Both the position numbers and the translations under genes were made by a program. A stretch of 17,061 bases of DNA from Nitrospirota bacterium (lineage in GTDB: Bacteria; Nitrospirota; Thermodesulfovibrionia; Thermodesulfovibrionales; BMS3Bbin05), in NCBI GenBank assembly GCA_020351835.1, contig CP070669.1, forward strand, positions 2,107,918 through 2,124,978. Direction: 5' to 3'. Below are positions 2,842-16,768 of the stretch, one piece after another (the stretch's first letter is position 1; every line of letters begins with the position of its first letter). A model generated the notes under the pieces. That model did no database searches. It was not told the DNA's origin and saw nothing but the letters and a program-made list of their open reading frames with translations.

Positions 2842-3447
2842 TCAGGTCTTCACCACATAACTGTTCAGAGTATCTACCACTTTTTTTGCCTCGGCATCGG
2901 AAGTAGTCGTGAAAACGACCTGATCGCTGTCTGCAAAGCGGGCAACTACGTTATAGAACTCCTTTACCTCTCCAAAGCCCGGGATCACAGTCCCGTGCTG
3001 AAGCGCTATCTTCTCTACCACGGCCACGCCATCAGGGTTTTCGGGCTCTATCCTTATATATTCGACATCGAACTGTCTTAGTTCGCTAAAGTCTTTTCCA
3101 ATGACCCTGCTTCCCAGGTTCCTTTTAAGGGTAAGAGTGACGACACCTGACCCCTTGTCGACCTCGGTAATAAGAACGGGGGCCTTGAATATGAACGTCC
3201 GGGACAACGGGAATATTATCACAAATATGACCGCTGCAACCAGGTAATGTATAAGACCGATCTCTCCAAGAACAGCCATAGAAATGAGATATATAACGAT
3301 AAACACAGCCGACACAAAACTTGAAGCGAGTTCCTTATTGAATATACCGCTATGAAGGACACTGCCCCTGTCCACCTTAAACGATGATGTCTGAAGCATT
3401 ACACTGTCCGCTCCTGTCCTTATCTCATGTCCTCCTTCAAGTCCCAC
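2842..3447 (-). CDS. Conserved membrane protein of unknown function inserted between carA and carB. The annotated start is GTG; an internal ATG at 3397-3399 is an alternative start.
   Basis: Open frame of 201 aa filling the carA-carB gap. Two hydrophobic segments ([22 protein letters not shown] and [17 protein letters not shown]) are followed by a soluble domain. Short spacing to both neighbours. Confidence 0.75.
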
Positions 3448-3453
3448 CGGGTT

Positions 3454-4578
3454 TTATCCTTTCAAGATCAACTCTTTGAATCTGTTGAATATATGCGAGG
3501 AATCGTGAGGGCCCGGGCCAGCCTCGGGATGATGCTGCACTGAAATGACAGGGAGTTCCACATGCTCCATGCCTTCCTCGGTACCGTCATAAAGGTTCCT
3601 GTGTGTAAGCTTTACTTTATCCCCGAGGCTCTTTATATCAACGCAATAGTTATGGTTCTGGGAAGTTATCTCAACTCTTCCGGTTGCAAGGTCCTTCACG
3701 GGATGGTTCCCGCCATGGTGGCCGAACTTCAATTTATATGTATCTCCGCCCATAGCAAGACCGAGGATCTGGTGTCCCAGGCATATACCGAACACCGGTT
3801 TCTTACCCAGAAGTTTTTTTGCATTTTCTATCCCGTACTTAACAGCTCCGGGATCACCGGGGCCGTTGCTCAAAAAGACCCCGTCGGGATCCATCTCCAG
3901 AACTTTGTCTGCCGGCGTCCTGGCCGGAACGACCTTGATATCGAAACCGGCATCATTCATGTGACGCAATATGTTCAGCTTGACCCCGAAATCATAAACT
4001 ACCACTGTGGGTAAGCGACCCTTGTTGCTCTTGTCTTCCGATCCATGCTCCCACCTCCAGACGCTTTCATGAGGATTATACTCTTTTTTTGACGTTACCA
4101 GCTCGACAAGATCAACCCCGTCTATGCCGGGATGCTGTCTGACCTTATCTAACAGGTACTCGGGCTCTGATCCCGTTGATGAGATAACACCCATCTGGGC
4201 GCCGTTATCCCTGATATGTCTCGTGAGCGCTCTGGTATCTATCCCCTGAATGCCTACTATTCCGTTGTCCTCAAGATATTGTCCGAGCGAACCCCTGGAG
4301 CGCCAGTTGCTCGGATACTCGAGGTACTCCTTTACGATAAATCCCTCGACCTTAGGACCACCTATCGATTCGATGTCCTCCTCGTTAACCCCGTAATTAC
4401 CCATCTGAGTATAGGTCATAGTTACTATCTGCCCCTTATATGAGGGATCGGTAAGGATCTCCTGATAACCAGTCATGGATGTATTGAACACTACCTCTCC
4501 TATGGTCTCTCCGAACGCGCCGAAGGGCTCTCCATCAAATACTGTACCGTCCTTAAGTACCAGACAGGCCTTCTTCAT
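3454..4578 (-). CDS. carA: Carbamoyl-phosphate synthase small (glutaminase) subunit
   Basis: 374 aa: LKDGTVFDGEPFG...GEVVFNTSMTGYQEILTDPSY, LSNGPGDPGAV and glutaminase nucleophile motif VFGICLGHQILGLAMG...QHHPEAGPGPHDS. Confidence 0.98.
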   Translation of the reverse strand: MKKACLVLKDGTVFDGEPFGAFGETIGEVVFNTSMTGYQEILTDPSYKGQIVTMTYTQMGNYGVNEEDIESIGGPKVEGFIVKEYLEYPSNWRSRGSLGQYLEDNGIVGIQGIDTRALTRHIRDNGAQMGVISSTGSEPEYLLDKVRQHPGIDGVDLVELVTSKKEYNPHESVWRWEHGSEDKSNKGRLPTVVVYDFGVKLNILRHMNDAGFDIKVVPARTPADKVLEMDPDGVFLSNGPGDPGAVKYGIENAKKLLGKKPVFGICLGHQILGLAMGGDTYKLKFGHHGGNHPVKDLATGRVEITSQNHNYCVDIKSLGDKVKLTHRNLYDGTEEGMEHVELPVISVQHHPEAGPGPHDSSHIFNRFKELILKG

Positions 4579-5870
4579 CTCTCATCCACCATGAGGTCGT
4601 GAACTTTCCCCTTGCATAAGGTCATTACCGGCCTCCCCTTTAATATCATGCCGTTAAAAGGCGTGTTCTTTCCCTTTGATAAGAATCTATCGCAGTCGAC
4701 CTCGAACTCTGCTTCTCTGTCCACGATAACTACATCGGCATCTGATCCCTCGCTCAACGTTCCCTTATTCAATCCAAGGATAGACGCAGGCGACAGAGAC
4801 ATCTTTGATACCAGTCCGTTCATATCCAGTACACCTTGCACAACGAGTCCGAGGCTCATTGACAGGGCCGTCTCGAGACCCGATATCCCTGGGGCGGCCT
4901 TATCGAACTCGCAAAGCTTCTCATCCTGATGATGGGGAGCATGGTCCGTAGCTATAACATCTATTGTTCCATCGGAAAGGCCTCGTTTTATAGCTTCCAC
5001 ATCCCTATCGGTCCGGAGAGGAGGATTGACCTTTGCAAAGGTGTTATATCCCATTGCCAATTCTTCTGTGGTCGTGAAATAGTGAGGACATGTTTCCGCA
5101 GTAACGTTTATTCCATCGCTTTTTGCCCTTCTGACCGCCTCCACCCCCTCTTCTGTTGATATATGCGCAATATGCAGCCTTCCTCCGGTAAGACCGGCAA
5201 GATCGATGTCCCTTTTTATCATGATTATTTCGGCTTCGCGGGGTATTCCCTTTAATCCGAGAAGGTTAGACAACCTTCCCTCGTTCATTACGCCATCCGC
5301 CGACAGCGAACTATCCTCTGCATGAGATATTACCGGCGTGCCGAAGACCTTGGTGTACTCAAGTGCCCTTCTCATGATCATGCTGTTCATTACCGGACGG
5401 CCGTCATCAGAGAAAGCAATACATCCGGCATCGAACATCATCCCCATCTCCGCAAGTTCGGCACCTTCCTGTCCCTTGGTTATTGCTCCTATCGGATACA
5501 CATAACAGGACCCTTCGGCAAAGGCCTTCCTCAGGATGAACTCCGTAACGGTCTCATTATCATTTACCGGTTTTGTATTAGGCATGCAGCATACTGAAGT
5601 AAATCCCCCCCTTACAGCGGCCAGTGTACCGGTCCGTATCGTCTCCTTATACTCGAAGCCGGGCTCCCTAAGATGAACGTGCATGTCAACAAGACCAGGC
5701 ATTACGTAAAGACCTGACGCATCTACTATCCTGATCTCAGGATCGTTGGCCTTTACCTTTATGTTCTTCCCTGTCTTTAATATTGTACGGCCCTCGACAA
5801 GCAGGTCACCTTTGGAATCCAGTCCCTGCGAGGGATCTACGATATGCCCGTTCCTGATAAGAACCTTCAT
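4575..5870 (-). CDS. pyrC: Dihydroorotase
   Basis: 431 aa with metal-binding [43 protein letters not shown] and [12 protein letters not shown]. Overlaps carA by 4 nt. Confidence 0.97.
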
Positions 5871-6802
5871 TGCTCTTTCTCCTTTGACCTGCCCAGGAGA
5901 TAAATAACGGCCATCCGTACGGCAACACCGTTCGTCACCTGCTCAAGAATGACCGAACGCTCATCATCAGCCACCTCCGATGCGATCTCTATGCCTCTGT
6001 TCATCGGTCCCGGATGCATCACTATAGCCTCAGGATCCGCCATATTCAGTCTTTCACGTGTAAGGCCCCAGAACCTGGAATACTCATCGCTTGACGGGAG
6101 GAACCCTCCTCCCTGTCTTTCCCTCTGTATCCGAAGCATCATTATCACATCAGCTCCCTTTAGCCCTTCATCCATGTCATAATGGATATCGATACCCTCT
6201 TCGTTTATATGAGAAGGCACGAACGTGGGAGGGGCTATAAGTCTGACCTCGGCACCGAGCTCCCTGAGGCAATATATGTTCGATTTGGCAACCCGGCTGT
6301 GAAGGATATCACCTACTATGGCTATCTTTAGCCCTTCGATCTGTGTCTTATGCTCCATGATCGTAAATGCATCGAGGAGGGCCTGGGTCGGATGTTCGTT
6401 TATCCCGTCACCTGCATTAAGTACCGATGCATCAGAGTGCTGAGCTATAAAATGCGGTACGCCGCTTGAGGCATGGCGTATTATTATGTAATCAACTCCA
6501 TATGACTCGATAGTAGCGATAGTATCCAGAAGGCTCTCTCCTTTTACCACGCTGCTTGTAGGGACAGAAAAGTTCACAACATCGGTGCTCAATCTCTTTG
6601 CAGCAAGCTCAAAAGATGTTCTCGTCCTTGTCGAAGGCTCGAAAAAAAGATTGAACACCGTTCGTCCGCGAAGGGCCGGGACCTTCTTAATGTCACGCTT
6701 CAGAACGTCCTTAAAACCCGAGGCCGTTTCAAGAACAAGGGATATCTGCTCTCTGGTCATTCCCCTTATGCCAAGAAGGTCCTTTTGTCCAAGCGAGCTC
6801 AC
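5867..6802 (-). CDS. pyrB: Aspartate carbamoyltransferase catalytic subunit
   Basis: 311 aa with carbamoyl-phosphate binding motif [19 protein letters not shown], and [12 protein letters not shown] and [11 protein letters not shown]. Overlaps pyrC by 4 nt. Confidence 0.98.
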
Positions 6803-7347
6803 TCTTCACCCTCTGATCTTTTCAATATTACCTCGTCCTTTCCTGCATCTTCCTTGAACACAACCTCTATCGTTTCGTTCTTTGAGGTCGGGATATTCTT
6901 CCCGGCATAATCAGCCCTTATCGGAAGTTCTCTGTGTCCACGGTCTATCAATACCGCAAGCTGAATTACCGCGGGCCTGCCTATGTCCATCAATGCGTCC
7001 ATAGCCGCTCTTATGGACCTGCCGGTAAAAAACACGTCATCTACAAGGATGACTACCTTTCCGTTAATATCGAAAGGGACATCGGTCCTTCTTATCCTCG
7101 GCTGCTCGTCCCGTATGTCCAGGTCATCCCTGTACATCGCTATGTCAAGAGTGCCGACCTGTACTTTCTGCCCCTCTATCAGATCTATCCTATCGGAGAG
7201 CCTCCTCGCCATATGAACCCCTCCCCTCTGTATACCGATCAGGCAGACATCCACAACCCCCTTATTGTTCTCTATTATCTCGTGCGCTATTCTGGATATA
7301 GCCCGTTCCATGTCGCTCTTGTCCAGCAGTATTTTAGGATCTGTCAT
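6799..7347 (-). CDS. pyrR: Bifunctional pyrimidine operon regulator PyrR / uracil phosphoribosyltransferase
   Basis: 182 aa with PRPP-binding motif [23 protein letters not shown]-terminal [14 protein letters not shown]...[15 protein letters not shown]. First gene of the pyr operon, overlaps pyrB by 4 nt. Confidence 0.96.
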
Positions 7348-7380
7348 AGGTCATTCCCCGATCAATAAAGGTCTTTGGAC

Positions 7381-7413
7381 AAAAAAAAACCTTTCCCCGA
7401 TCAGAGGAAAGGT
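7381..7413 (-). terminator. Intrinsic terminator in the 5' leader of pyrR (attenuator)
   Basis: Minus strand: ACCTTTCC-TCTGATCGG-GGAAAGGT (8-bp stem, arms 7406-7413 and 7389-7396) followed directly by an 8-nt T tract (7381-7388). It lies about 35 nt upstream of the pyrR start codon. Confidence 0.85.
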
Positions 7414-7447
7414 CTCGTTATTATCTTTTTTTCCAACAGTATCTCCT

Positions 7448-7484
7448 TTACCTTATTAGCCGCGCGGGACTAATTTAAAAGTAA
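7448..7484 (-). promoter_or_regulatory. PyrR-binding-loop-like anti-antiterminator hairpin in the pyr leader
   Basis: Minus strand UUACUUU-UAAA-UUAG-UCCCGCGCGG-CUAA-U-AAGGUAA. The outer stem UUACUUU/AAGGUAA (7478-7484 / 7448-7454) has one U-G pair; the inner stem is UUAG/CUAA. The core AGUCCCGCGCGGCU (7458-7471) closely resembles the B. subtilis-type PyrR binding loop AGUCCAGAGAGGCU and is followed by an UAAGG element. Confidence 0.75.
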
Positions 7485-7493
7485 TGCTTGTCT

Positions 7494-7522
7494 ATTAAAG
7501 CATATCCGGAAGAAATTGTCAA
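7494..7522 (-). promoter_or_regulatory. Sigma70-type promoter for the pyr operon
   Basis: Minus strand TTGACA (7517-7522), 17-nt spacer, TTTAAT (7494-7499). The predicted start near 7487 is just upstream of the PyrR-binding-like hairpin. Confidence 0.75.
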
Positions 7523-7558
7523 AAAAGACATACTCCGGTCGAGATACAGTTTTGATGG

Positions 7559-8542
7559 TCAAACGATCGCCAGCATCTTGTCGAGTGCCTCTTTGGCGGG
7601 GACCCTGATATCCTCGGGGACCTTGATAACATTTACCATGTTCTCAAGGGCGTTCACGACACTTTCAAGACGCGTCTTCTTCATGTTAGGACATATCATG
7701 TCCTTTCTCAGCGGGTGGAACATCTTCCCGGGGTTCTCTTTCCCTAGCCTGTACATCAGGCCTACCTCCGTACCCACTATGAACTCTTTAGCATCAGATC
7801 CCCTGGCAAACCTGAGCATCCCTGAAGTGCTCGTTACATGATCGGCGGCCTCACAGACCTCGAGCCGGCATTCCGGATGTGCCATCAGGACCGCATCAGG
7901 ATGGTCAGCTCGCGCTTTCTCAACATCCTTTACAGTGATCCTGTCATGTACATGGCAGAAACCATCCCATGCAATGATCTTCTTGCCGGTGTTCCTGGCC
8001 GCCCACATTGACAGGTTCTTGTCCGGTATGCAAATGATCTCCTCCTGCGGGATGGATTCAATGACCTTAATTACATTTGATGACGTGCAACATATATCAC
8101 TCTCGGCCTTGATGTCCGCTGTTGTATTAACGTAGGTCACTACCGCCGCATCAGGATATTTCTCCTTTATATCCCTCAGGGTAAAATCGTGGGGGAAAAC
8201 GAAAGCCGGCTGCTCAGTATAACCCGGGAAGTTCTTCCATACCTTCCTCTCACCCCTTACTCTGATCATATCTGCCATGGGGCAGTTCGCTTCAAGTTCC
8301 GGAAGCAATACCGTTTTATCGGGAGAAAGGATCGAAGCGCTCTCAGCCATAAAATTGACACCGCAGAACACTATTACATCGCAGTCCACCCCGGCGGCCT
8401 GCCTTGACAGCTCAAGAGAGTCGCCAGTAAAGTCCGCTATGTCCTGAACCTCGTCCCTCTGGTAATTATGCGCAAGTATAACGGCGTTGCGCTTTTTCTT
8501 CAAACTGATGATCCGGTCCTGGAGAACTGCGATATCGGTCAT
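7559..8542 (-). CDS. nadA: Quinolinate synthase (4Fe-4S)
   Basis: 327 aa: ILAHNYQRDEVQDIADFTGDSLELSR, VFCGVNFMAESA, HPECRLEV and DMICPNMKKT, the characteristic NadA cysteine and active-site motifs. Confidence 0.97.
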   Translation of the reverse strand: MTDIAVLQDRIISLKKKRNAVILAHNYQRDEVQDIADFTGDSLELSRQAAGVDCDVIVFCGVNFMAESASILSPDKTVLLPELEANCPMADMIRVRGERKVWKNFPGYTEQPAFVFPHDFTLRDIKEKYPDAAVVTYVNTTADIKAESDICCTSSNVIKVIESIPQEEIICIPDKNLSMWAARNTGKKIIAWDGFCHVHDRITVKDVEKARADHPDAVLMAHPECRLEVCEAADHVTSTSGMLRFARGSDAKEFIVGTEVGLMYRLGKENPGKMFHPLRKDMICPNMKKTRLESVVNALENMVNVIKVPEDIRVPAKEALDKMLAIV

Positions 8543-9247
8543 CTAAAAGCTTTCATCCGTGAACTCAAGGGGGGTGTCAGTAAAGAGAAGCGTGCCGTCG
8601 CTCAGAACGATCTTGAATATCGGCCTGGATATGGCGTCTTTTTTCATCGGCACATAGCTGAACCTTTCCTCACCGCCGTACAGTGCCAGTATCTTTCTTA
8701 CATATTTGTATGTCTCCGTGTTCTTCGAGAAGTTTACTTTCTTCATCACCCTCGTAGGTCCGGCGTTGTATGCGGCAAGGGACTTTCGAAGGTCCCCCTT
8801 GAACATGTCAAGAAGCATCCTGAAGTATCTTACCCCTCCGGAAATGTTCTCCTCAGGGTCGAACGGATCACTAACAGAAAGGGATTTGGCCGTCATAGGC
8901 ATAAGCTGCATCAACCCCATTGCACCCTTTGAGGAGATCGCCTCGGGATACCAGTTCGATTCAACCGTGATCATGGCCCTTATGAGCTCGGGGTCTACGG
9001 AGTATTCTTCAGCTAATCTTTTGGCAATGGGGAAATATTTACCTACGTTCTTATAGAAATTGCCCTTCACCAAATTAAGGCTGTTTGAAGCGTACTGCTT
9101 GGACCTGGATAAAAGGCTTGCACTACCTTCATAAGGGATATCCGAGTACACTATAACACCTTCAGCATTCTCGTACCTGTAAATATCGGCTGTTACCGGA
9201 CTACATAATGATAACAATACAATTAAAAGAATAGAGCTCCTCAACAT
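8543..9247 (-). CDS. Exported lytic transglycosylase (SLT/GEWL domain) with an N-terminal DUF4124-like segment
   Basis: Signal peptide MLRSSILLIVLLSLCSPVTA, then DIYRYENAEGVIVYSDIPYEG, then SLT motifs ITVESNWYPEAISSKGAMGLMQLMPMTA...NISGGVRYFRMLLDMFKGDLRKSLAAYNAGP. The stop codon abuts the nadA start. Confidence 0.93.
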   Translation of the reverse strand: MLRSSILLIVLLSLCSPVTADIYRYENAEGVIVYSDIPYEGSASLLSRSKQYASNSLNLVKGNFYKNVGKYFPIAKRLAEEYSVDPELIRAMITVESNWYPEAISSKGAMGLMQLMPMTAKSLSVSDPFDPEENISGGVRYFRMLLDMFKGDLRKSLAAYNAGPTRVMKKVNFSKNTETYKYVRKILALYGGEERFSYVPMKKDAISRPIFKIVLSDGTLLFTDTPLEFTDESF

Positions 9248-9253
9248 ACTGTG

Positions 9254-9282
9254 ACTATAGCACTATCAGATAAATAAGTCAA
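9254..9282 (-). promoter_or_regulatory. Sigma70-type promoter for the lytic transglycosylase-nadA pair
   Basis: Minus strand TTGACT (9277-9282), 17-nt spacer, TATAGT (9254-9259), ending 6 nt before the ATG at 9245-9247. Confidence 0.65.
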
Positions 9283-9346
9283 TATTTACAATGTGTTATG
9301 GCACCGATATTAAAGCCGGCCCGCTTAAAGGCAACAAGGGGAACTT

Positions 9347-9634
9347 TTAGTGACCTTTTGAAGCATTTATCCTGATAAGAAACACCAGTTCCCCGGCCGA
9401 TTCCTTCGTATCGATCATCTCATGGCCATACCTTCCGGCAAAGGATATCATATCAGCTTTCGATCCCGGGTCCGATGAAATAATCTTAAGGACCTGACCA
9501 TCTGCCATTTGCCCTATCTCCTTTTTAGCACTGAGTACGGGTATGGGACAGTTGAACCCCTTAACATCTAAAGTTCTGTCAGCCCGGTGTTCTTCCTTTA
9601 GTTCATCTGGTCCATTATCTTTATCAATATCCAT
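9347..9634 (-). CDS. TusA-like sulfur carrier/sulfurtransferase family protein
   Basis: 95 aa with the TusA/SirA signature LDVKGFNCPIPVLSAKKEIGQMADGQVLKIISSDPGSKADMISF (CPxP motif). A GGGG-type Shine-Dalgarno lies upstream. Confidence 0.88.
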   Translation of the reverse strand: MDIDKDNGPDELKEEHRADRTLDVKGFNCPIPVLSAKKEIGQMADGQVLKIISSDPGSKADMISFAGRYGHEMIDTKESAGELVFLIRINASKGH

Positions 9635-9777
9635 TAATTACCCCTTTGTCACAGGATAAATCATAATTCTATTCAGGACCAAATTGCAATTCATCTGCAA
9701 TTGATTATAATTCAGATCAAAACCCATAAATACATTTGTCTTGACAAGCCATTGATCTTTCATGTAAAAGTAATAAC

Positions 9778-10086
9778 ATGAAAAGATATAAATCACTTAT
9801 ACCGCTACTCCTGGTCAGTATATTCACTTTTTTTGTTATCGTGCCGGTCAATATTGCTGAGTCAGGTGATGACTGGAAGGATGAACTGAGAGAAGTATGC
9901 TCAAAGGTCCAGATAGCGGATGAGCTCAGTATCAAGGAGCTTCAGGACCTCATAGCTCAGGCAGATGAGCTGACGATCAAGATAAGCACATCAGGGGACA
10001 GAAGGATGAAGATATTCGTGATGAGACTTCAGAAGTGCAAGTCATTTTTTGAGTTTACGATAGAGACAAAAGAGCCAAAGAAGTGA
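9778..10086 (+). CDS. Small exported protein of unknown function
   Basis: 102 aa with signal-peptide-like N-terminus MKRYKSLIPLLLVSIFTFFVIVPVNIAES, charged helical remainder with two cysteines, convergent with the next gene. The overlapping reverse ORF 9717-9935 looks less plausible. Confidence 0.6.
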   Translation: MKRYKSLIPLLLVSIFTFFVIVPVNIAESGDDWKDELREVCSKVQIADELSIKELQDLIAQADELTIKISTSGDRRMKIFVMRLQKCKSFFEFTIETKEPKK

Positions 10087-10100
10087 ACCTGCCGTGTCTG

Positions 10101-11810
10101 TTACTGGGTGCCTATACCACCGACAACAATTGAAGAGTACTTACCTGCAGATACGTCACTTACGACAGATACATCCCACATTCTGACCGGTGCAGGCTTG
10201 ACAGGCTGGTCATGCAGGTCCTTACCCCATACCCATGTAGTCCCGTCGTTCATAAGTGCCAATGTATGATACATACCGGCCGAAACCTTCTTAATACTTC
10301 CTACCCCCGGTATCTTAAAGGCTACCGAACCGTTTGCGTCCTTTTTCCCGAGCTGACCGAACTCATTGCCTCCCCAGGCCCAGACCGAACCGTCCTTCTT
10401 AAGAGCTACGGTATGATAAAGCCCTGCCGATATCCCTATCATCCCTGACAGGCCTGGAACCTTAATTGGCGATGTCCTCATCTTTCGTGACCTGTCCCCC
10501 AGTATTCCGTTAATGTTCCAGCCCCAGGCCCAGACCGAACCGTCAGAACCCTGCGCTACCGTGTGGTGAAGTCCGGCCGAGGCGTTCTTTATGCCTGTAA
10601 GTCCCTTTACATTCACCGGGGCCTCCCTTGATCTAGTCGAACCGTCACCCAACTGCCCCTGGACATTCCATCCCCAGGTGAACACTGATCCGTCCTGCTT
10701 TACGGCCACATTATGGAACATTCCTGCATCTACAGAAACTATGTTATTCAGGCCTTTCACTTTGACAGGTTCATTACTGTCCCTGGTCGACCCGTTACCA
10801 AGCTGACCGTAAGAGTTACCGCCCCATGCCCACACGGACCCGTCAGCGCTGAGAGCTATTGTATGGTACATGCCTGCAGAAACATCCGTTACCCTCATCA
10901 GGTCCTTCACCAGCACCGGGATCTTACTGTCTATGTTGTCGCCGTTGCCAAGCTGTCCACGGTTGTTGCGCCCCCATGTCCAGGCCGATCCATCTGATTT
11001 GATGGCAACAGAATGGTCTACTCCCGAAGCGACACTGATCACGTCTTCCATTCCGCCGATAGGCAAAAGGCCCTCCCTGCTATTATTGCTCCCATCTCCC
11101 AACTGTCCATATTCGTTAAGGCCGCCTGTCATCACCGCACCGGCGACTGCTTTTTTAGGCATCCAGCTCGAACGGACCGGCCACAGGAACTTGTAACTGC
11201 AGGCTGACATATAGTCTATTGTCATCTCTCCGGATGCGATATCAAGGATCCATACGTAGTCGATTATATCCCTGCCGGTAGACGCCGACCAGTAAAAATG
11301 GTTCTGTACACCGTCAAAGGGATGTCCAACCTGAAGAGCAGGATAGAACTTTGACCTGTCTATAAGGGTCTGAAGCTCGTTTATCGCCGGGAGCCTCCAG
11401 TCCGTATATCCGAAATTAGGTCTTATACCGCTGTTCATCTCCTGGATGTACTGTCTGGCACCAAGCCATGGAAGAGGAAGTTTGTGTATATTGGCGTCCT
11501 TCATCCATATAAGCCCGGTATCCCTGTCGAGTACGGTACCGTCCCCATTGTCCGCGAACCTGTGAGAGGTGCCGGAAGAGACCTTTTGAGTGCTTTTCTT
11601 AGACTGAACCTTGCCGGTCTTCTTCTCTGCAGCTGTAGATTGGATTGCAAATGTAAGCGAAAAGAACACGATGGTGACCATGCAGATAAACCTGATCAAA
11701 GGGATTTTTCTTTCGATATCAATCATTTTTATTAGCTCAATACCCTTGTTAACACAAAAACCGGCTTTATTGTAATGAAAGCCGGTCGTCAATATCAAGC
11801 GCTCATACAT
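10101..11810 (-). CDS. Exported DUF1566 (Lcl C-terminal-like) + RCC1/BLIP-II-type beta-propeller repeat protein. The likely start is the internal ATG at 11724-11726.
   Basis: Hydrophobic signal sequence IPLIRFICMVTIVFFSLTFAIQSTAA. DUF1566-like segment RFADNGDGTVLDRDTGLIWMKDA...YTDWRLPAINELQTLID...YWSAST...LWPVRS. Several RCC1 units of type VSAGMYHTIALSADGSVWAWGGNSYGQLGNGSTRDSNEPVKVKGL. Confidence 0.9.
   Translation of the reverse strand: MYERLILTTGFHYNKAGFCVNKGIELIKMIDIERKIPLIRFICMVTIVFFSLTFAIQSTAAEKKTGKVQSKKSTQKVSSGTSHRFADNGDGTVLDRDTGLIWMKDANIHKLPLPWLGARQYIQEMNSGIRPNFGYTDWRLPAINELQTLIDRSKFYPALQVGHPFDGVQNHFYWSASTGRDIIDYVWILDIASGEMTIDYMSACSYKFLWPVRSSWMPKKAVAGAVMTGGLNEYGQLGDGSNNSREGLLPIGGMEDVISVASGVDHSVAIKSDGSAWTWGRNNRGQLGNGDNIDSKIPVLVKDLMRVTDVSAGMYHTIALSADGSVWAWGGNSYGQLGNGSTRDSNEPVKVKGLNNIVSVDAGMFHNVAVKQDGSVFTWGWNVQGQLGDGSTRSREAPVNVKGLTGIKNASAGLHHTVAQGSDGSVWAWGWNINGILGDRSRKMRTSPIKVPGLSGMIGISAGLYHTVALKKDGSVWAWGGNEFGQLGKKDANGSVAFKIPGVGSIKKVSAGMYHTLALMNDGTTWVWGKDLHDQPVKPAPVRMWDVSVVSDVSAGKYSSIVVGGIGTQ
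10110..11090 (-). repeat. Degenerate in-frame tandem repeat array encoding roughly 50-residue RCC1-type units (approximate boundaries, about 7 units)
   Basis: Recurring (D/N)ASAG.YH.VAL..DGSVWAWG.N..GQLG.G......P..V.GL in the translated minus strand. Confidence 0.85.
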
Positions 11811-11932
11811 AAGAGTTCCCTATTAGTTCATAAACAACTTTACAATTAAGTTAACGATATGATAGTCTGATGAGTTTTTACGATCAGTCTTTGATTTTAC
11901 CCATTTAACTACGATCTGAGAGGGAGTTTATT

Positions 11933-13357
11933 ATGACAATCAAATCTAAGTACTCTCCATTAATCGCGATCATCTTCTTTCTGGCCATCGGTGTTAATTT
12001 CGCATTCGCTGCTAATATGAGCGAGGACTTCGCATTTAAGATCTCGTTAGAGAACCACCTGGAGAAGAGGCTGAAACACATAATCACCGAGATCACCGGA
12101 AGCGACAGGGGTGTCATCATAATCAATGCCGATATCGGCACGGTCAAGGGCGGTGATTCCAACAAAGGAAGTATAACAAAGAAAAAGAGCCAGGATGCGC
12201 TAGTATTGCCCGGAGTTCCGGTAAAGAAAGAGTTCGGTACGGGCCTTAAGGAGACTGCTGAGCTTCTCTTCCCCGGAGCGGGCGGCAGTAAATATAAGGT
12301 AAACAAAATGAGCGTCTCCATATGGCTTGATAAAGGGCTTTCACAGTCAATTGTAGACCTTGTAGATAACCTTGCAAAGCAGGTTGTCGGTTACAACGAG
12401 ACGAGAGGGGATAAGGTTGAAATAGTTCCGATCGACTTCAAGGGAGAGAAGTTCTACTGGTCCTCGATATTCTATCCCAAGAACCTTTTCATACTAGCAC
12501 TTGGCCTTGCGGCGGCCCTTTTCTTTCTCGCTGGAGCGTCGTTCCTGTCGGACCCTCTTAAGAACCTTTCAAACGCAATTGCTTCGGTCGACTGGGACCA
12601 GGTAAGGGGCGCAAACGCAGGGATAGAAGCATATAGCCCCAGCTACGAGATGGAAGAACCCGGAATAAGCAGTGATATTACTGGAGCATACGATGCAGGC
12701 GAGCAGCAGCCTTTCTCTTTCATATCCGAGAGAGACCTCTCTAACCTGTCATATCTTCTTAAAGACAGATCGGCTGAGGATATAGCAACGGTAGCTAACT
12801 TCCTCGAGATAGATCTGGCGGCAAAATTGCTCGAATCTTTCGGCACGGATGAACAGGCAGAGGTTGCCCTGCACCTTAGCAATGAGAAGGTCGACCCGGA
12901 CGGGGTAAAGAAGCTCGAGTCCGAGATAAGAGAACAACTAAGCTACGTTGTCGGGGGAGAGAGGAAGTTCATATCGCTCATGAGACTTTCGGATGATGAT
13001 GTCAGGGAAAAGGCTATGGGCATGATGGAGCAGAAGGACAGGGATACCGCATCCCGACTGAAGACCAGGGTAAAGAGCTTCGATGATACAATATCAGATC
13101 TTCCGGCACAGGGCATAAGGGCACTTTACAGAAGGACCAACCCTCTCATCTTCGCGCAGATCGTAAAAGGCTCGTCAGATAAGGTAATAGAGAAGATCCT
13201 GGGATCGCTCAGTGAGGGCGCGGTCGAAAGGCTCAAGCAGGAGATGGAGCTCAGCCAGCCTCTTTCACCCGGACGCCTTCGCAAAGAAAGAATAAACCTC
13301 ATGATGCGCCTTGCAAGCCTTATGGATGAGGGAGCAATAGAAGGAGTGAACAACTGA
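11933..13357 (+). CDS. Exported/membrane FliF C-terminal-domain + FliG fusion protein (rotor-like)
   Basis: SD GAGAGGGAG before ATG. aa 1-27 signal peptide. aa ~38-70 LENHLEKRLKHIITEITGSDRGVIIINADIG resembles the FliF EKRV...VRVxVNADVDF segment. aa ~123-170 VNKMSVSIWLDKGLSQSIVDLVDNLAKQVVGYNETRGDKVEIVPIDF resembles the FliF C-terminal AVGYDxxRGDxVxVVNMPF block. TM at aa ~184-205. aa ~262-472 is FliG-like, including GG..KFISLMRLSDDDVREKAMGMM, LKTRVKSFDDTISDLPAQGIRALYRR and KGSSDKVIEKILGSLSEGAVERLKQEME...INLMMRLASLMDEG. Confidence 0.82.
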   Translation: MTIKSKYSPLIAIIFFLAIGVNFAFAANMSEDFAFKISLENHLEKRLKHIITEITGSDRGVIIINADIGTVKGGDSNKGSITKKKSQDALVLPGVPVKKEFGTGLKETAELLFPGAGGSKYKVNKMSVSIWLDKGLSQSIVDLVDNLAKQVVGYNETRGDKVEIVPIDFKGEKFYWSSIFYPKNLFILALGLAAALFFLAGASFLSDPLKNLSNAIASVDWDQVRGANAGIEAYSPSYEMEEPGISSDITGAYDAGEQQPFSFISERDLSNLSYLLKDRSAEDIATVANFLEIDLAAKLLESFGTDEQAEVALHLSNEKVDPDGVKKLESEIREQLSYVVGGERKFISLMRLSDDDVREKAMGMMEQKDRDTASRLKTRVKSFDDTISDLPAQGIRALYRRTNPLIFAQIVKGSSDKVIEKILGSLSEGAVERLKQEMELSQPLSPGRLRKERINLMMRLASLMDEGAIEGVNN

Positions 13358-13358
13358 T

Positions 13359-14135
13359 ATGGATTTTATGACTATCATAGGACTGCTCCTCGGCGGCGCA
13401 ACGGTTTATCTCGTAATGCTTCAGGGAAATATTCTTGACATGGTACTTAACCCTGTCGCCGCACTGCTCGTGTTTGGAGGAACTTTCAGCGCTACACTAA
13501 TAGCATATCCGTGGGACCTTATAAAGCAGACCGTTCCATCTTTCAGACTTATGTTCTTCCCTAAGAGGAACACATATGAATATCTTGAGGAGGTCGTTGA
13601 GTCGATGACCTCATTGGCAGAGAAGGCGAGAAGACAGAGCATAGAAAGCCTTCAGGGAGACCTTGGCAAGATAGAGAGCAAGTTCTTTTCGCATGGCATG
13701 CAGATGGTTATAGATGGCCTGGACCCGGCCATAGTCAGGGATAACATGGAAAAAGAGATCCTGTATACCAGACAGAGCTTCCAAAAAGTGTGCGGAGTGT
13801 TCCGTACAATGGCAACACTTTCTCCGATATTCGGGCTTCTCGGTACCCTCATAGGAATAGTCGGGGTCCTCCGCAATCTTGCTGACCCTGCATCTATGGG
13901 AAGCAATATGGCAATCGCTATAACGACCACATTTTATGGTATATTCGCCGCAAACTTTCTTTTTCTGCCGATCTCCATAAAGCTGAACGAACACAGTGAA
14001 CGGGATGTCCTGATCAAGGAACTTATAGCAGAAGGCATTATTGCCATTCACAGCGGTGACCTGCCGCTCATAGTCAGGAAGAAACTCAACGCATTTCTTT
14101 CATCCCACATAAGGGAAAAAAGCGAAAGCAAATAA
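13359..14135 (+). CDS. MotA-like proton/sodium channel stator protein
   Basis: 258 aa: NPVAALLVFGGTFSATLIAYPW, LAEKARRQSIESLQGDL, VIDGLDPAIVRDNMEKEI, TMATLSPIFGLLGTLIGIVGVLRNL...MAIAITTTFYGIFAANFLFLPISIKL. Starts 1 nt after the previous stop. Confidence 0.95.
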   Translation: MDFMTIIGLLLGGATVYLVMLQGNILDMVLNPVAALLVFGGTFSATLIAYPWDLIKQTVPSFRLMFFPKRNTYEYLEEVVESMTSLAEKARRQSIESLQGDLGKIESKFFSHGMQMVIDGLDPAIVRDNMEKEILYTRQSFQKVCGVFRTMATLSPIFGLLGTLIGIVGVLRNLADPASMGSNMAIAITTTFYGIFAANFLFLPISIKLNEHSERDVLIKELIAEGIIAIHSGDLPLIVRKKLNAFLSSHIREKSESK

Positions 14136-14818
14136 TGCTCCTTAAGCGTATCTATTCCGACCAGCACAGAAAAAGGTCGAGCCCATTGTGGCTCATCATA
14201 TTCTCCGACATGAGCACTAATCTCATGCTCTTCTTCCTTATACTCTTCGCCATGACAAGGATGAGCGATCCCGAGAGGCAATTGATGATAGAGGGAATGG
14301 AGCATGCGGTAAGCGATGAGGTAAGGAAGACCGAGCTTAAAGGAGAAAAGCTCCTGAGGCAGATCAAGGATGAAGATGCCATCAGTAACCTGCGGAACGC
14401 AATAACATACGGCAAACTGGCCGGCCACGCAAAACTGGAAGTTGACGAGAACGAGGTAAAGGTCACACTGAACCTGCCGCGTTTCTTTTCTATCGGAAGT
14501 GCGGAACTGAACGACAATATTACCGATGCACTGTCAAGTCTTGCGGAGCCTCTGAGCCGCTTTCCTAATGACATTGTCATAGAGGGCCATACCGATAACG
14601 TGCCTGTAAGGGGCGGGAGATACCGATCGAACTGGGAGCTGTCCGTAGCTCGCGCGGTGAGCGTTATAGATTTCTTTACCAAAAGGGGATTATTGCCGGA
14701 ACAGCTAATATCAGCAGGGTACGGTGAGTACCACCCTGCATACCCTAACGACACTGAAGATAACAGGTCGCGCAATCGACGGATAGAGATCAACATAATA
14801 AGGAAACAGAGGCTATAG
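14135..14818 (+). CDS. MotB-like stator protein with C-terminal OmpA peptidoglycan-binding domain, TM aspartate retained
   Basis: WLIIFSDMSTNLMLFFLILFAM (D25 at the MotB D32 position) and OmpA-like domain IVIEGHTDNVPVRGGRYRSNWELSVARAVSV...NRSRNRRIEI. Overlaps the motA stop by 1 nt (TAATG). Confidence 0.93.
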   Translation: MLLKRIYSDQHRKRSSPLWLIIFSDMSTNLMLFFLILFAMTRMSDPERQLMIEGMEHAVSDEVRKTELKGEKLLRQIKDEDAISNLRNAITYGKLAGHAKLEVDENEVKVTLNLPRFFSIGSAELNDNITDALSSLAEPLSRFPNDIVIEGHTDNVPVRGGRYRSNWELSVARAVSVIDFFTKRGLLPEQLISAGYGEYHPAYPNDTEDNRSRNRRIEINIIRKQRL

Positions 14819-14822
14819 CTAT

Positions 14823-15473
14823 ATGCTATCTTTTACTAAACTTATAATAGCTTCAGAAAGGGACCGCGATGACAGCTCGCTCTGGATGCTTCCCTACAGT
14901 ACCCTGATGCTTATACTGCTCATTTTCTTTGCAATCCTGTTTGTTGATTCATATAAGCAGTCAATAGACTATGAGATGGCTATTGCTGAACTTGACGATA
15001 CGAACGAAGGCCTGAAGAAAGAGATAATCCTTGCCAAGAACATGCAGAAGTATATAAACGATAATAATATGAACGATATCGCGGAGATTAAAGTATCGGC
15101 TCGTTTTATAAAACTTGACCTCAAAAGCCCGGCTCTGTTTGAAAGCGGTTTGGCAGACCTTAAACCGGGTATACTGCCTCTGTTCAGAGAGCTAGCGGAT
15201 AACCTGAAGAATGTAGATAACACTGTCGTGGTAGAGGGCCATACCGATAACATCCCTATACATAACAGGTTCTTCGATTCGAACTGGGAGCTTTCATCTG
15301 CCAGGGCATTCAGTGTATTATATTTCCTTATAAATAAAGAGATCGATCCGGAAAGACTTATTGCCCACGGTTTCGGCGAGTTCAGGCCGATCTTTTCGAA
15401 CGATACAGCGGATAACAGGGCTCGTAACAGACGGATCGAGATCACTATCATAAGGAAGGGTAGAGAAGCATGA
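14823..15473 (+). CDS. Second MotB-like protein with OmpA domain, TM aspartate replaced by Thr
   Basis: WMLPYSTLMLILLIFFAILF followed by VVVEGHTDNIPIHNRFFDSNWELSSARAFSVLYFL...DNRARNRRIEITIIRK. Starts 4 nt after the first MotB-like gene. Confidence 0.9.
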   Translation: MLSFTKLIIASERDRDDSSLWMLPYSTLMLILLIFFAILFVDSYKQSIDYEMAIAELDDTNEGLKKEIILAKNMQKYINDNNMNDIAEIKVSARFIKLDLKSPALFESGLADLKPGILPLFRELADNLKNVDNTVVVEGHTDNIPIHNRFFDSNWELSSARAFSVLYFLINKEIDPERLIAHGFGEFRPIFSNDTADNRARNRRIEITIIRKGREA

Positions 15474-16768
15474 GGAAGATAGCGGTCATACTTGTGCTCT
15501 TAATGAGCTTTTCATCGTCGGCTGATGCCATTACTGCCCGACAGCTGGAGAAGGTAGAGGAACTCAAGACAGAGGCTTTAGAGCTGCTTCGCAAAAAGGA
15601 GTTCGATAAAGCTGTCCCGGTCCTGAATGAGATACTCGCAATAGACCCTCTTGAAAAGACAGCTAACAGGTACCTTAACCTTGCCAAGCAACAGGCGATG
15701 GAGCCTTTCTGCCAGGAGGCGGCCGAGGCTTTCATGAAAGATGATTATGCCAGCGCTATAGACTCATGGGAAAAGATATTAAGGATGAACCCTGGGGATC
15801 AAAGGTTCTCACGCCTGATAGAGATCACAAAGAACCTCGTCTCTGACAAGACCATCGATGAGATGTATTCGCGTGCGAATGACTTTCTAGAAAAGGGCGA
15901 CAGGAACTCGGCTGCCAATGAGCTCGAGAAGATCCTTTCCATTAAACCTTACGACCGGCGTGCACGAGAAATGCTTGCCAAGGCCAAACAGTCGGTCTCA
16001 AGCGCAAAGACCAAGAAACACTACGATCAGGCTGACCAGTATATGAAGCAGAAGAAATACGACCTGGCCATAGAGGAGTGGAACAAAGTACTCGCGATAG
16101 ATGACAGCCAGCAAGCCGCAAAAAGGCTTATTGCATCGGCCATAAGAGAGAAGATACAGATACAGTACTCCGAGGCTGAGAAACTTTACAGGAAGGGCGA
16201 TTACCTTTCCGCGCGCGACAACTACTACAAGATCCTGGTCGATAATCCGACCGATCTTGATGTAAAGACGATCATATCCAACCTTGACGATACCACAAAG
16301 ATCGTAAACCGGATGGATGAAAGAGGAAAGGCTTACGATATCATGAGGACCTCTCTATCCAACCATATAGCGATAGACGGCAACAAGAAAGCGGCCGTAG
16401 CTGCTGCATGGTACGCAGTACAGATAGACCCCCAGAACACTACGGCACTTGCTATCAAGAACTACATGGAAATGAAGTATGCAACTCTCGTAGCTACAAT
16501 GGAACCCCCTATTGGTTCTATGAACATAATCGACCAGTATCTGTTCGCCGCCCTTAACCACATATATGAGGGGCGCTATGATATGTCGATACAGGAAACT
16601 GGGATAGTGATAGCGCTCGACCCGGACAGCCTTCTCGCATGGAAAAGGCTCGGATCGGCTTACTTTGCGATGGGAGAGAAGAAGAAGGCGCGTAATGCGT
16701 GGCAAAGGGCGCTGAAGATAGACCCCAATGATAAAGAGCTGAAACAGTTCATTAAACAGGCAAAATGA
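15470..16768 (+). CDS. Exported tetratricopeptide-repeat protein
   Basis: Signal peptide MRKIAVILVLLMSFSSSADA and multiple TPR units, e.g. YDQADQYMKQKKYDLAIEEWNKVLAIDDSQQAA, YSEAEKLYRKGDYLSARDNYYKILVDNPTD and LLAWKRLGSAYFAMGEKKKARNAWQRALKIDPND. 4-nt overlap with the upstream gene. Confidence 0.93.
   Translation: MRKIAVILVLLMSFSSSADAITARQLEKVEELKTEALELLRKKEFDKAVPVLNEILAIDPLEKTANRYLNLAKQQAMEPFCQEAAEAFMKDDYASAIDSWEKILRMNPGDQRFSRLIEITKNLVSDKTIDEMYSRANDFLEKGDRNSAANELEKILSIKPYDRRAREMLAKAKQSVSSAKTKKHYDQADQYMKQKKYDLAIEEWNKVLAIDDSQQAAKRLIASAIREKIQIQYSEAEKLYRKGDYLSARDNYYKILVDNPTDLDVKTIISNLDDTTKIVNRMDERGKAYDIMRTSLSNHIAIDGNKKAAVAAAWYAVQIDPQNTTALAIKNYMEMKYATLVATMEPPIGSMNIIDQYLFAALNHIYEGRYDMSIQETGIVIALDPDSLLAWKRLGSAYFAMGEKKKARNAWQRALKIDPNDKELKQFIKQAK

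Follow-up and report, generated by a model that had tools for sequence, protein, structure and literature searches.

Electrostatic torque coupling has its textbook example in the interface of the flagellar rotor and stator, and partial natural versions of this interface serve as controls for the contacts that are essential. Ion-driven motors of the A5B2 type also work in non-flagellar roles, as in ExbBD–TonB, TolQR–TolA, AglRQS, GldLM and ZorAB. The A subunits of the non-flagellar 5:2 motors are of a 'generic ion transporter' kind, with no torque-generating interface and no FliG-like partner, and a survey of MotAB evolution placed flagellar-type A subunits in flagellar systems only (PMC12505986). 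In the flagellar case, the solved complex of MotAB with FliG_C from Clostridium sporogenes showed a 'pincer grip', in which charges at both ends of the torque helix hold neighbouring MotA subunits (PMC11302681), and an engineered Vibrio FliF–FliG fusion is reported to form rings (PMC11481574). Here, we examine a 17,061 bp stretch of DNA from a Nitrospirota bacterium (GenBank accession number CP070669.1, positions 2107918–2124978; referred to as the window) that carries a five-gene cassette encoding a single protein with FliF-like and FliG-like parts (the fusion), a MotA, two MotB proteins (MotB1 and MotB2) and a TPR protein.

We consider, with a probability of roughly 0.7, that the cassette is a minimal flagellar-type rotor–stator operon in which one of the two classical charge pairs, equivalent to MotA R90 and FliG D289 of Escherichia coli and found here as R91 and E437, is constrained, and in which the other pair (E98 and R281) has gone by sequential relaxation, the rotor Arg being lost first. 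Residue identities, alignment columns, conservation, synteny, purifying selection and fold assignments were established directly.

Conservation of the cassette

The five genes are packed on the plus strand of the window between positions 11933 and 16768. The gap between MotB1 and MotB2 is 4 nt; at each of the other three junctions the stop codon of one gene overlaps the start codon of the next or lies 1 nt from it. A protein search with the fusion recovered 58 relatives, and scans of genome and metagenome contigs yielded at least 51 loci. Synteny of the cassette was conserved over about 45 loci from at least two phyla. The genes for the fusion and MotA kept their order in approximately 40 Nitrospirota loci. 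The full order in Nitrospirota was a gene for an Lcl_C/RCC1 protein on the minus strand (with the exceptions given below), then the genes for the fusion, MotA, MotB1, MotB2 and the TPR protein. The order in Elusimicrobiota was TPR(-LysM), fusion, MotA, MotB and MotB, with the TPR gene upstream of the fusion gene. Neither fliM nor fliN was found in any cassette locus examined, and no flagellar genes were detected in the flanks, extending up to 8 kb on each side, of the 51 loci from the two scans.

The ratio of non-synonymous to synonymous substitution rates (dN/dS) was 0.04–0.10 for all five genes in two moderately diverged locus pairs. These closer pairs were used for the estimate, as the synonymous sites are saturated between the window and its closest locus (L003) and that comparison was unusable. 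The genes for the fusion, MotA, MotB1, MotB2 and the TPR protein are one conserved operon under purifying selection and, given the low dN/dS in all five, the cassette is being preserved by selection, unlike a remnant in decay.

Retention of the R91–E437 pair

The E. coli MotA residues R90 and E98 correspond to R91 (bases 13629–13631, AGA) and Q99 (bases 13653–13655, CAG) of the window MotA in four alignments, made using BLASTP, phmmer and MAFFT with two sequence sets, one of 42 cassette MotAs and the other of the 150 nearest cluster representatives. In the phmmer alignments to stators of known structure, 'karrqsieslq' in the window MotA was aligned with 'arregvlale' and 'karregllsle'. The FliG residues K264, R281, D288, D289 and R297 correspond to K412 (13166–13168), G429 (13217–13219), Q436 (13238–13240), E437 (13241–13243) and S445 (13265–13267) of the fusion. 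The same register was again obtained in four alignments, namely phmmer against the FliG of Thermotoga maritima and Vibrio, BLASTP against E. coli FliG, MAFFT, and hmmalign of E. coli FliG onto a 51-member profile of the fusion family. The BLASTP segment was weak (E value 0.89) and left the register unchanged. The residue equivalences had been proposed by eye in a preliminary description of the window, and the codons, read directly, together with the single register given by the four alignments for each protein, bear them out, with the residues falling in the claimed columns of the profile alignment. The region assigned to them there (13359–13700) covers the MotA half alone; the residues of the FliG-like half are encoded by bases 13166–13267, within the upstream gene.

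Column 91 of MotA was basic in 119 of 120 close homologues (106 Arg and 13 Lys), and E437 was invariant in the 51-member fusion alignment. When distinct protein pairs from the same locus were compared, 36 of 39 combined a basic residue at MotA 91 with an acidic residue at rotor 437. The pair is therefore retained, as originally described. Taken with the gene order, the coupled junctions and the low dN/dS, the kept pair indicates that the fusion and MotA are very likely partners, in a modified form of the flagellar arrangement and presumably in contact. Because the solved MotAB–FliG_C complex grips the torque helix by charges at both of its ends, the cassette would thus keep one jaw of the pincer grip, and R91–E437 is most likely the contact by which an ion-driven MotA pentamer would push the torque helix.

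Loss of the E98–R281 pair

The residue equivalent to R281 is Arg in the FliG of Salmonella, Vibrio and Thermotoga. It was Gly in every fusion from Nitrospirota and Elusimicrobiota and Glu, Thr or Asp in four more distant variants, and it was never basic in any cassette protein examined. In the fusion alignment G429 and K412 were each at least 90 % conserved. The equivalents of R281 and R297, and often that of D288, are uncharged in the fusion family and, of the five torque-helix charges of FliG, only the equivalents of K264 and D289 are kept.

On the stator side, homologues of MotA numbered 731 at an E value of 1e-10 or below. A HMMER search using the window MotA returned 150 representatives with 30–62 % identity, and the cassette MotAs formed a clade of 38 of the 177 sequences in a neighbour-joining tree. 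Column 99 was non-acidic in 113 of the 120 close homologues, with Gln in 74 (as in the window), Ala in 22, Ser in nine, Glu in six, Gly in three, Asp in one and another residue (among Leu, Thr, His and Arg) in five. Within Nitrospirota it was Gln, Ala or Ser. An acidic residue was present at the E98 column in 121 of the 139 MotA representatives that lie outside the cassette clade and in 3 of the 38 within it; these counts come from related sequences and are not independent events. On these alignments the contrast is more than would be expected by chance, and it is a clade-level association. In addition, every MotA with a FliG-like neighbour that could be inspected faces a rotor without the Arg.

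The preliminary description had held that the two sites co-varied, and the data do not bear this out. Position 429 is invariant in the Nitrospirota and Elusimicrobiota fusions while MotA 99 may be Gln, Ala, Ser, Glu or Asp, and an acidic residue at MotA 99 was found alongside Gly429 in three cassettes. Two of these (L019 and L020) are from Elusimicrobiota and have Glu at MotA 99 and Gly on the rotor. The third (L070) is of the Nitrospirota type, with Thr in MotB2, and has Asp at MotA 99; its partner reads ASLPEGAVDRVTQEMDL, with Gly at 429. Strict co-variation of MotA 99 with rotor 429 was consequently rejected. Of the earlier interpretation, the partnership and the kept R90–D289 pair stand, and the joint change of the E98 and R281 sites does not. 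As the sites vary independently across the cassette family, loss by sequential relaxation is indicated rather than compensatory co-variation. In the likeliest history, Gly took the place of the rotor Arg in an ancestor shared by the whole family of fusions, after which the constraint on the stator Glu would have been lost and the position would have drifted (to Gln more than Ala, Ala more than Ser, and Ser more than Glu, Asp and others).

Other sources of co-variation were also considered and set aside. An apparent coupling between MotA 99 and rotor 436, with all Ala-type MotAs paired with Glu and all Ser-type MotAs with Gln, was put down to shared ancestry, as each state corresponds to approximately one clade. 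Charge-reversed MotAs, with Lys or Arg at position 99, would have made a sharper test. One (P0184) is from a frameshifted nanopore contig in which the residues are unreliable, the open reading frame upstream of another (P0279) is not FliG-like, and the contigs of the rest end before any partner gene could be included.

The fusion and its probable stator proteins

The locations of the features discussed are listed in Table 1. The fusion sequence is identical to a record from a Nitrospirota metagenome-assembled genome. From the N-terminus, it is made up of a transmembrane helix, a periplasmic domain resembling FliF RBM3, a second transmembrane helix and the cytoplasmic middle and C-terminal domains of FliG. 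The Pfam scores for FliG_M (30.9 bits) and FliG_C (46.5 bits) are over their cut-offs, and the YscJ_FliF_C match (28.7 bits) covers only the short segment given in Table 1. In an AlphaFold2 model (mean predicted local distance difference test score 75.6, and about 90 over most of the FliG part, residues 261–460), the first transmembrane helix spans residues 8–21 and is followed by an alpha-beta-beta-alpha-beta unit (29–167) that includes a low-confidence insert (73–117), the second transmembrane helix (182–217), and the FliG middle and C-terminal domains (266–466) with the torque helix at 428–440. Foldseek matched the C-terminal half to FliG structures comprising the same two domains (E values of 3.5e-9 and above) and the N-terminal half to FliF RBM3/collar chains (E values of about 1e-3, target TM-scores of 0.5–0.6).

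Several parts of the flagellar proteins were not found in the fusion. There was no Pfam match to FliG_N, and the FliG part begins at about residue 258, directly after the transmembrane helix and a linker. The EHPQR motif that binds FliM is not kept, its columns reading R-S-A-E..H and being unconserved across the family. RBM1 and RBM2 are not present, the periplasmic part being only about 155 aa. The fusion scored 48.5 bits against the NCBIfam model for FliG (TIGR00207, cut-off 226.7) and 22.5 bits against that for FliF (TIGR00206, cut-off 129.75). It resembles a naturally occurring FliF–FliG fusion in miniature, with no switch, and to judge from the fold it may form a ring. The periplasmic insert includes an invariant motif, L-x-LPGVP-x-x-K-x-x-G (fusion residues 90–102, window bases 12200–12240). 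The model confidence there is very low, as expected if the insert needs an oligomer or a partner in order to fold.

Both Pfam scores for MotA, for the domains MotA_N and MotA_ExbB, are above the cut-offs (91.4 and 30.6 bits), and its residues 1–250 match stators in the PDB (phmmer E values 1.5e-48 to 1.8e-17). The best scores against the NCBIfam MotA, PomA and MotP models were 183.7 bits (PRK08124, cut-off 340) and 182.2 bits (PRK09109, cut-off 237), both below cut-off. The channel prolines, P173 and P222 in E. coli, are Pro in the window MotA and in every full-length cassette MotA. The adjoining gene encodes MotB1, which has the MotB_plug and OmpA domains and the channel Asp equivalent to E. 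coli D32. In MotB2 this residue is Thr in every Nitrospirota locus among the window and L003–L053, other than one with Ser (L041), and both MotB paralogues keep the Asp in an Elusimicrobiota cassette (L019). MotB1 and MotB2 may thus form a heterodimer in which only one Asp can be protonated. No gene in the cassette should be filed as a bona fide flagellar component, because MotA and the fusion fall below the equivalog cut-offs, MotA departs from the flagellar type at one of the charged positions and the fusion is without the defining domains.

Table 1. Positions of the cassette genes, key residues and neighbouring genes
Feature	Position	Strand	Description
Fusion (rotor-like protein)	11933–13357	+	474 aa; Pfam YscJ_FliF_C fragment (residues 120–169), FliG_M (272–340) and FliG_C (365–470)
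Fusion K412 to S445, torque-helix region	13166–13267	+	K264=K412, R281=G429, D288=Q436, D289=E437, R297=S445; R433 is a family-specific basic residue
MotA, PomA/MotA-type stator A subunit	13359–14135	+	258 aa; Pfam MotA_ExbB and MotA_N
MotA R91 to Q99 codons	13629–13655	+	R90=R91, E98=Q99; E96 is a clade-specific acidic residue
Possible charge-shift sites	MotA E96, 13644–13646; fusion R433, 13229–13231	+	Hydrophobic in canonical flagellar proteins; charged in the cassette family, with a tendency to joint loss in variants
MotB1	14135–14818	+	227 aa; plug, transmembrane helix with channel Asp (FSDMSTNLM), OmpA-like peptidoglycan-binding domain
MotB2	14823–15473	+	216 aa; architecture as MotB1, Thr for channel Asp (PYSTLMLIL)
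TPR protein	15470–16768	+	432 aa; N-terminal signal-like sequence; Pfam TPR families; final gene of cassette
Lcl_C and RCC1-repeat protein	10101–11810	-	569 aa; divergent from cassette; conserved neighbour only in Nitrospirota loci
Cytochrome/regulator flanks	L017, 1738–3945; L008, 14293–15282; L021, 12838–14229	-; +; -	

Proposed mechanism and alternative interpretations

In the mechanism we propose, a peptidoglycan-anchored MotA5B2 complex would turn ion flow into rotation of the MotA pentamer, and the pentamer would push the torque helix of the fusion via R91–E437, possibly with a contribution from E96 of MotA and R433 of the fusion. The fusion, if it forms a ring, would be the ring that turns in the membrane. 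The TPR protein, joined in Nitrospirota by the Lcl_C/RCC1 protein, would be a candidate for a periplasmic or surface partner. We infer from the fold that the fusion forms a ring, and from homology with the flagellar motor that R91 of MotA touches E437; the generation of torque is likewise part of the proposal.

A number of observations weigh against this interpretation. The R91–E437 pair is broken in three of the distant variants: both charges are lost in L058 (His/Trp), His replaces the acidic rotor residue opposite Arg in L068, and in L064 Lys is found with Gln, with a Glu one residue earlier. Conservation of R91 and E437 could also reflect intramolecular roles, and the cassette MotA may also serve a true flagellar motor. 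The neighbour-joining tree is too weak to resolve in what order, or how many times, the loss at MotA 99 occurred; multiple independent losses and a single loss plus a reversion are equally parsimonious.

Among the alternatives, one that fares comparatively well, though we hold it only tentatively, is that the second pair was re-registered rather than lost. The E98–R281 salt bridge would have slid by one helical turn to MotA E96 (i-3) and rotor R433 (i+4), leaving two charge pairs spaced 5 and 4 residues apart, where the classical spacing is 8 on both partners. Outside the cassette clade MotA column 96 is mostly Leu (120 of 139 representatives); inside it the column is Glu or Asp in 34 of 38, as it is in 110 of the 120 close homologues. 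Rotor column 433 is Ile in E. coli and Salmonella, Met in Vibrio and Leu in Thermotoga, and is Arg in at least 90 % of the fusion family. Each new charge sits roughly a helical turn nearer to the retained pair than the charge that was lost. Among distinct protein pairs, 27 had an acidic residue at 96 with Arg at 433, five had the acidic residue without the Arg, none had the Arg without the acidic residue and seven had neither; the only Nitrospirota-type locus with Gln at MotA 96 (L040) has Met at 433. However, the 27 concordant pairs represent approximately one clade and the counts are not independent. E96 is kept opposite Leu at 433 in two loci (L013 and L015), and in Elusimicrobiota and L064 the Arg is at 431 instead of 433. 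The canonical 96 and 433 positions may be buried away from the interface. The argument from spacing is complicated by the solved complex, where each end of the torque helix touches a different MotA subunit (PMC11302681).

A broader version of the same idea, to which we give a similarly low weight, is that the cassette is a self-contained rotary module independent of the flagellum, with a ring made up of the FliF RBM3 and FliG middle and C-terminal domains, its own MotA5–MotB1–MotB2 stator, the R91–E437 pair kept and E98–R281 replaced by E96–R433.

On one view, the two arms of the charged ridge of FliG_C serve the two senses of rotation. The one-sided loss of charge might then reflect the loss of bidirectional switching: without FliM and FliN, only the half required for rotation in one sense (K264 and D289) would be kept, and R281, R297 and in part D288 would be dispensable. 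This would fit a fusion with neither FliG_N nor the EHPQR motif, loci without fliM or fliN, and a family in which K412 and E437 are kept and the equivalents of R281, R297 and D288 are lost or variable. We nevertheless find it rather unlikely. The solved complexes engage the same torque-helix charges in the counterclockwise and clockwise models (PMC11302681), so that direction-specific use of the charges is not established, and the Glu of the Elusimicrobiota MotAs is left unexplained.

Less probable still is that the fusion is not a rotor and acts instead as a membrane-anchored decoy or regulator, binding MotA by its FliG_C-like domain, for instance to park or brake the stators of a flagellum encoded elsewhere. 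The R91–E437 pair would suit binding as well as torque, and a pincer contact with one half missing could couple less productively. On the other hand, the operon has its own MotA and two MotBs that co-occur with the fusion across phyla, and the cassette MotAs form a clade of their own apart from the bulk of the MotA representatives. The periplasmic domain matches the ring-forming RBM3/collar of FliF, which a decoy would not need.

Finally, a decaying flagellar remnant, in which the substitutions are neutral degeneration and uninformative about the interface, would account for the variability of MotA 99 and the NCBIfam equivalog scores far under the cut-offs for MotA, FliG and FliF, but it is strongly disfavoured by five intact genes in conserved order in dozens of genomes from at least two phyla, by the dN/dS values, by the many invariant residues including E437, with R91 near-invariant, and by retention of the channel prolines and the MotB1 Asp.

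Related loci and flanking genes

Among the nearest representatives from outside Nitrospirota, a protein with a FliG_C domain is encoded directly upstream of MotA in L058, L061, L064, L067 and L068. Variant arrangements were also seen. L062 (bases 3273–10756) and L063 encode a 554 aa protein with YscJ_FliF_C, FliG_M and FliG_C domains, a MotA with Pro at the E98 column and one MotB, along with a small TPR protein, an unknown protein of 484 aa and a giant one longer than 3700 aa. In L055 (bases 4490–7219) a close relative of the cassette MotA, with both of the rotor-facing charges neutral (Gln and Gln), is found beside an OmpA protein and a MotB (two MotBs). Genes for response regulators and a histidine kinase adjoin, and there is no FliG-like gene within 5 kb. 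An activated-sludge contig (L048, bases 3443–11819) includes a 643 aa fusion of FliG_M, FliG_C and TPR domains, with Gly at the R281 column, encoded between genes for a TPR protein and a 1616 aa protein, with no MotA adjacent.

The Lcl_C/RCC1 protein encoded next to the cassette in the window has an N-terminal hydrophobic segment, an Lcl_C domain and six RCC1 repeats. The gene was found in about 30 Nitrospirota loci, which are all of those with enough upstream sequence except L015, L040 and L041, and in none of the Elusimicrobiota loci. A gene for a lytic transglycosylase (SLT and DUF4124 domains) is found on the minus strand at bases 8543–9247, approximately 2.7 kb upstream of the cassette. 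It is probably unrelated, as it was found near the cassette in no other locus. The sequence between these two genes (bases 9001–10000) has a G+C content of 0.40, compared to about 0.49 elsewhere in the window, and includes only short open reading frames. Many Nitrospirota loci are flanked by genes for multihaem cytochromes, one with an OmpA domain, and a sigma-54 response regulator. As the window has neither, these flanks are probably lineage-specific synteny.

Comparison with known systems

The closest described systems share different parts of the cassette. Like the flagellar interface (E. coli MotA and FliG, and the C. sporogenes MotAB–FliG_C complex, PDB 8UCS), it combines MotA_N and MotA_ExbB domains with a FliG_C domain that includes the torque helix, and it keeps the R90–D289-type pair, the K264 equivalent, the channel prolines and a MotB with the plug, the Asp and the OmpA-like domain. 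Unlike the flagellar interface, the equivalents of R281, R297 and often D288 are uncharged, the E98 equivalent is neutral and variable, and new charged residues are present at MotA 96 and rotor 433. FliG_N and EHPQR are missing from the rotor protein and FliM and FliN from the loci, and the rotor domain is fused to its own putative membrane ring domain.

The engineered FliF–FliG fusions of Salmonella and Vibrio (for example PDB 8Z4D/8Z4G; PMC11481574) likewise have an MS-ring protein and FliG in one polypeptide, and the window fusion was matched by phmmer to a PDB chain of the engineered Vibrio protein in both its FliF and its FliG parts. In contrast to these, the window fusion is natural, is shorter (474 aa compared to 945 aa), is limited in its FliF part to an RBM3-like domain interrupted by a short insert, lacks RBM1, RBM2 and FliG_N, and is outside a flagellar gene set. 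Engineered examples were the only FliF–FliG fusions found in the literature searched, which included no description of a natural FliF/FliG-like fusion with a dedicated MotAB, and such a fusion is unmentioned in the survey of MotAB evolution (PMC12505986).

Like the non-flagellar 5:2 ion motors (ExbBD–TonB, TolQR–TolA, AglRQS, GldLM and ZorAB), the cassette would be an A5B2-type motor with a job other than turning a flagellar filament. What sets it apart from them is a MotA of the flagellar PomA/MotA kind that is accompanied by a FliG-like domain.

The residue-level claim is of moderate interest and the cassette behind it of higher interest. The cassette, a five-gene set without nearby flagellar genes, occurs widely in Nitrospirota and is also found in Elusimicrobiota and further lineages. 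Its R90–D289-type pair is near-invariant even though the lineage has dispensed with the second charge pair, with FliG_N and most of FliF, and with the switch, which points to this pair as the minimal conserved contact. If the cassette is a working rotary device, the origin and the minimal needs of stator–FliG coupling could become experimentally tractable. If it is also self-contained, it would be a descendant or a relative of the core torque unit of the flagellum, and a minimal 5:2 stator–FliG ring system.

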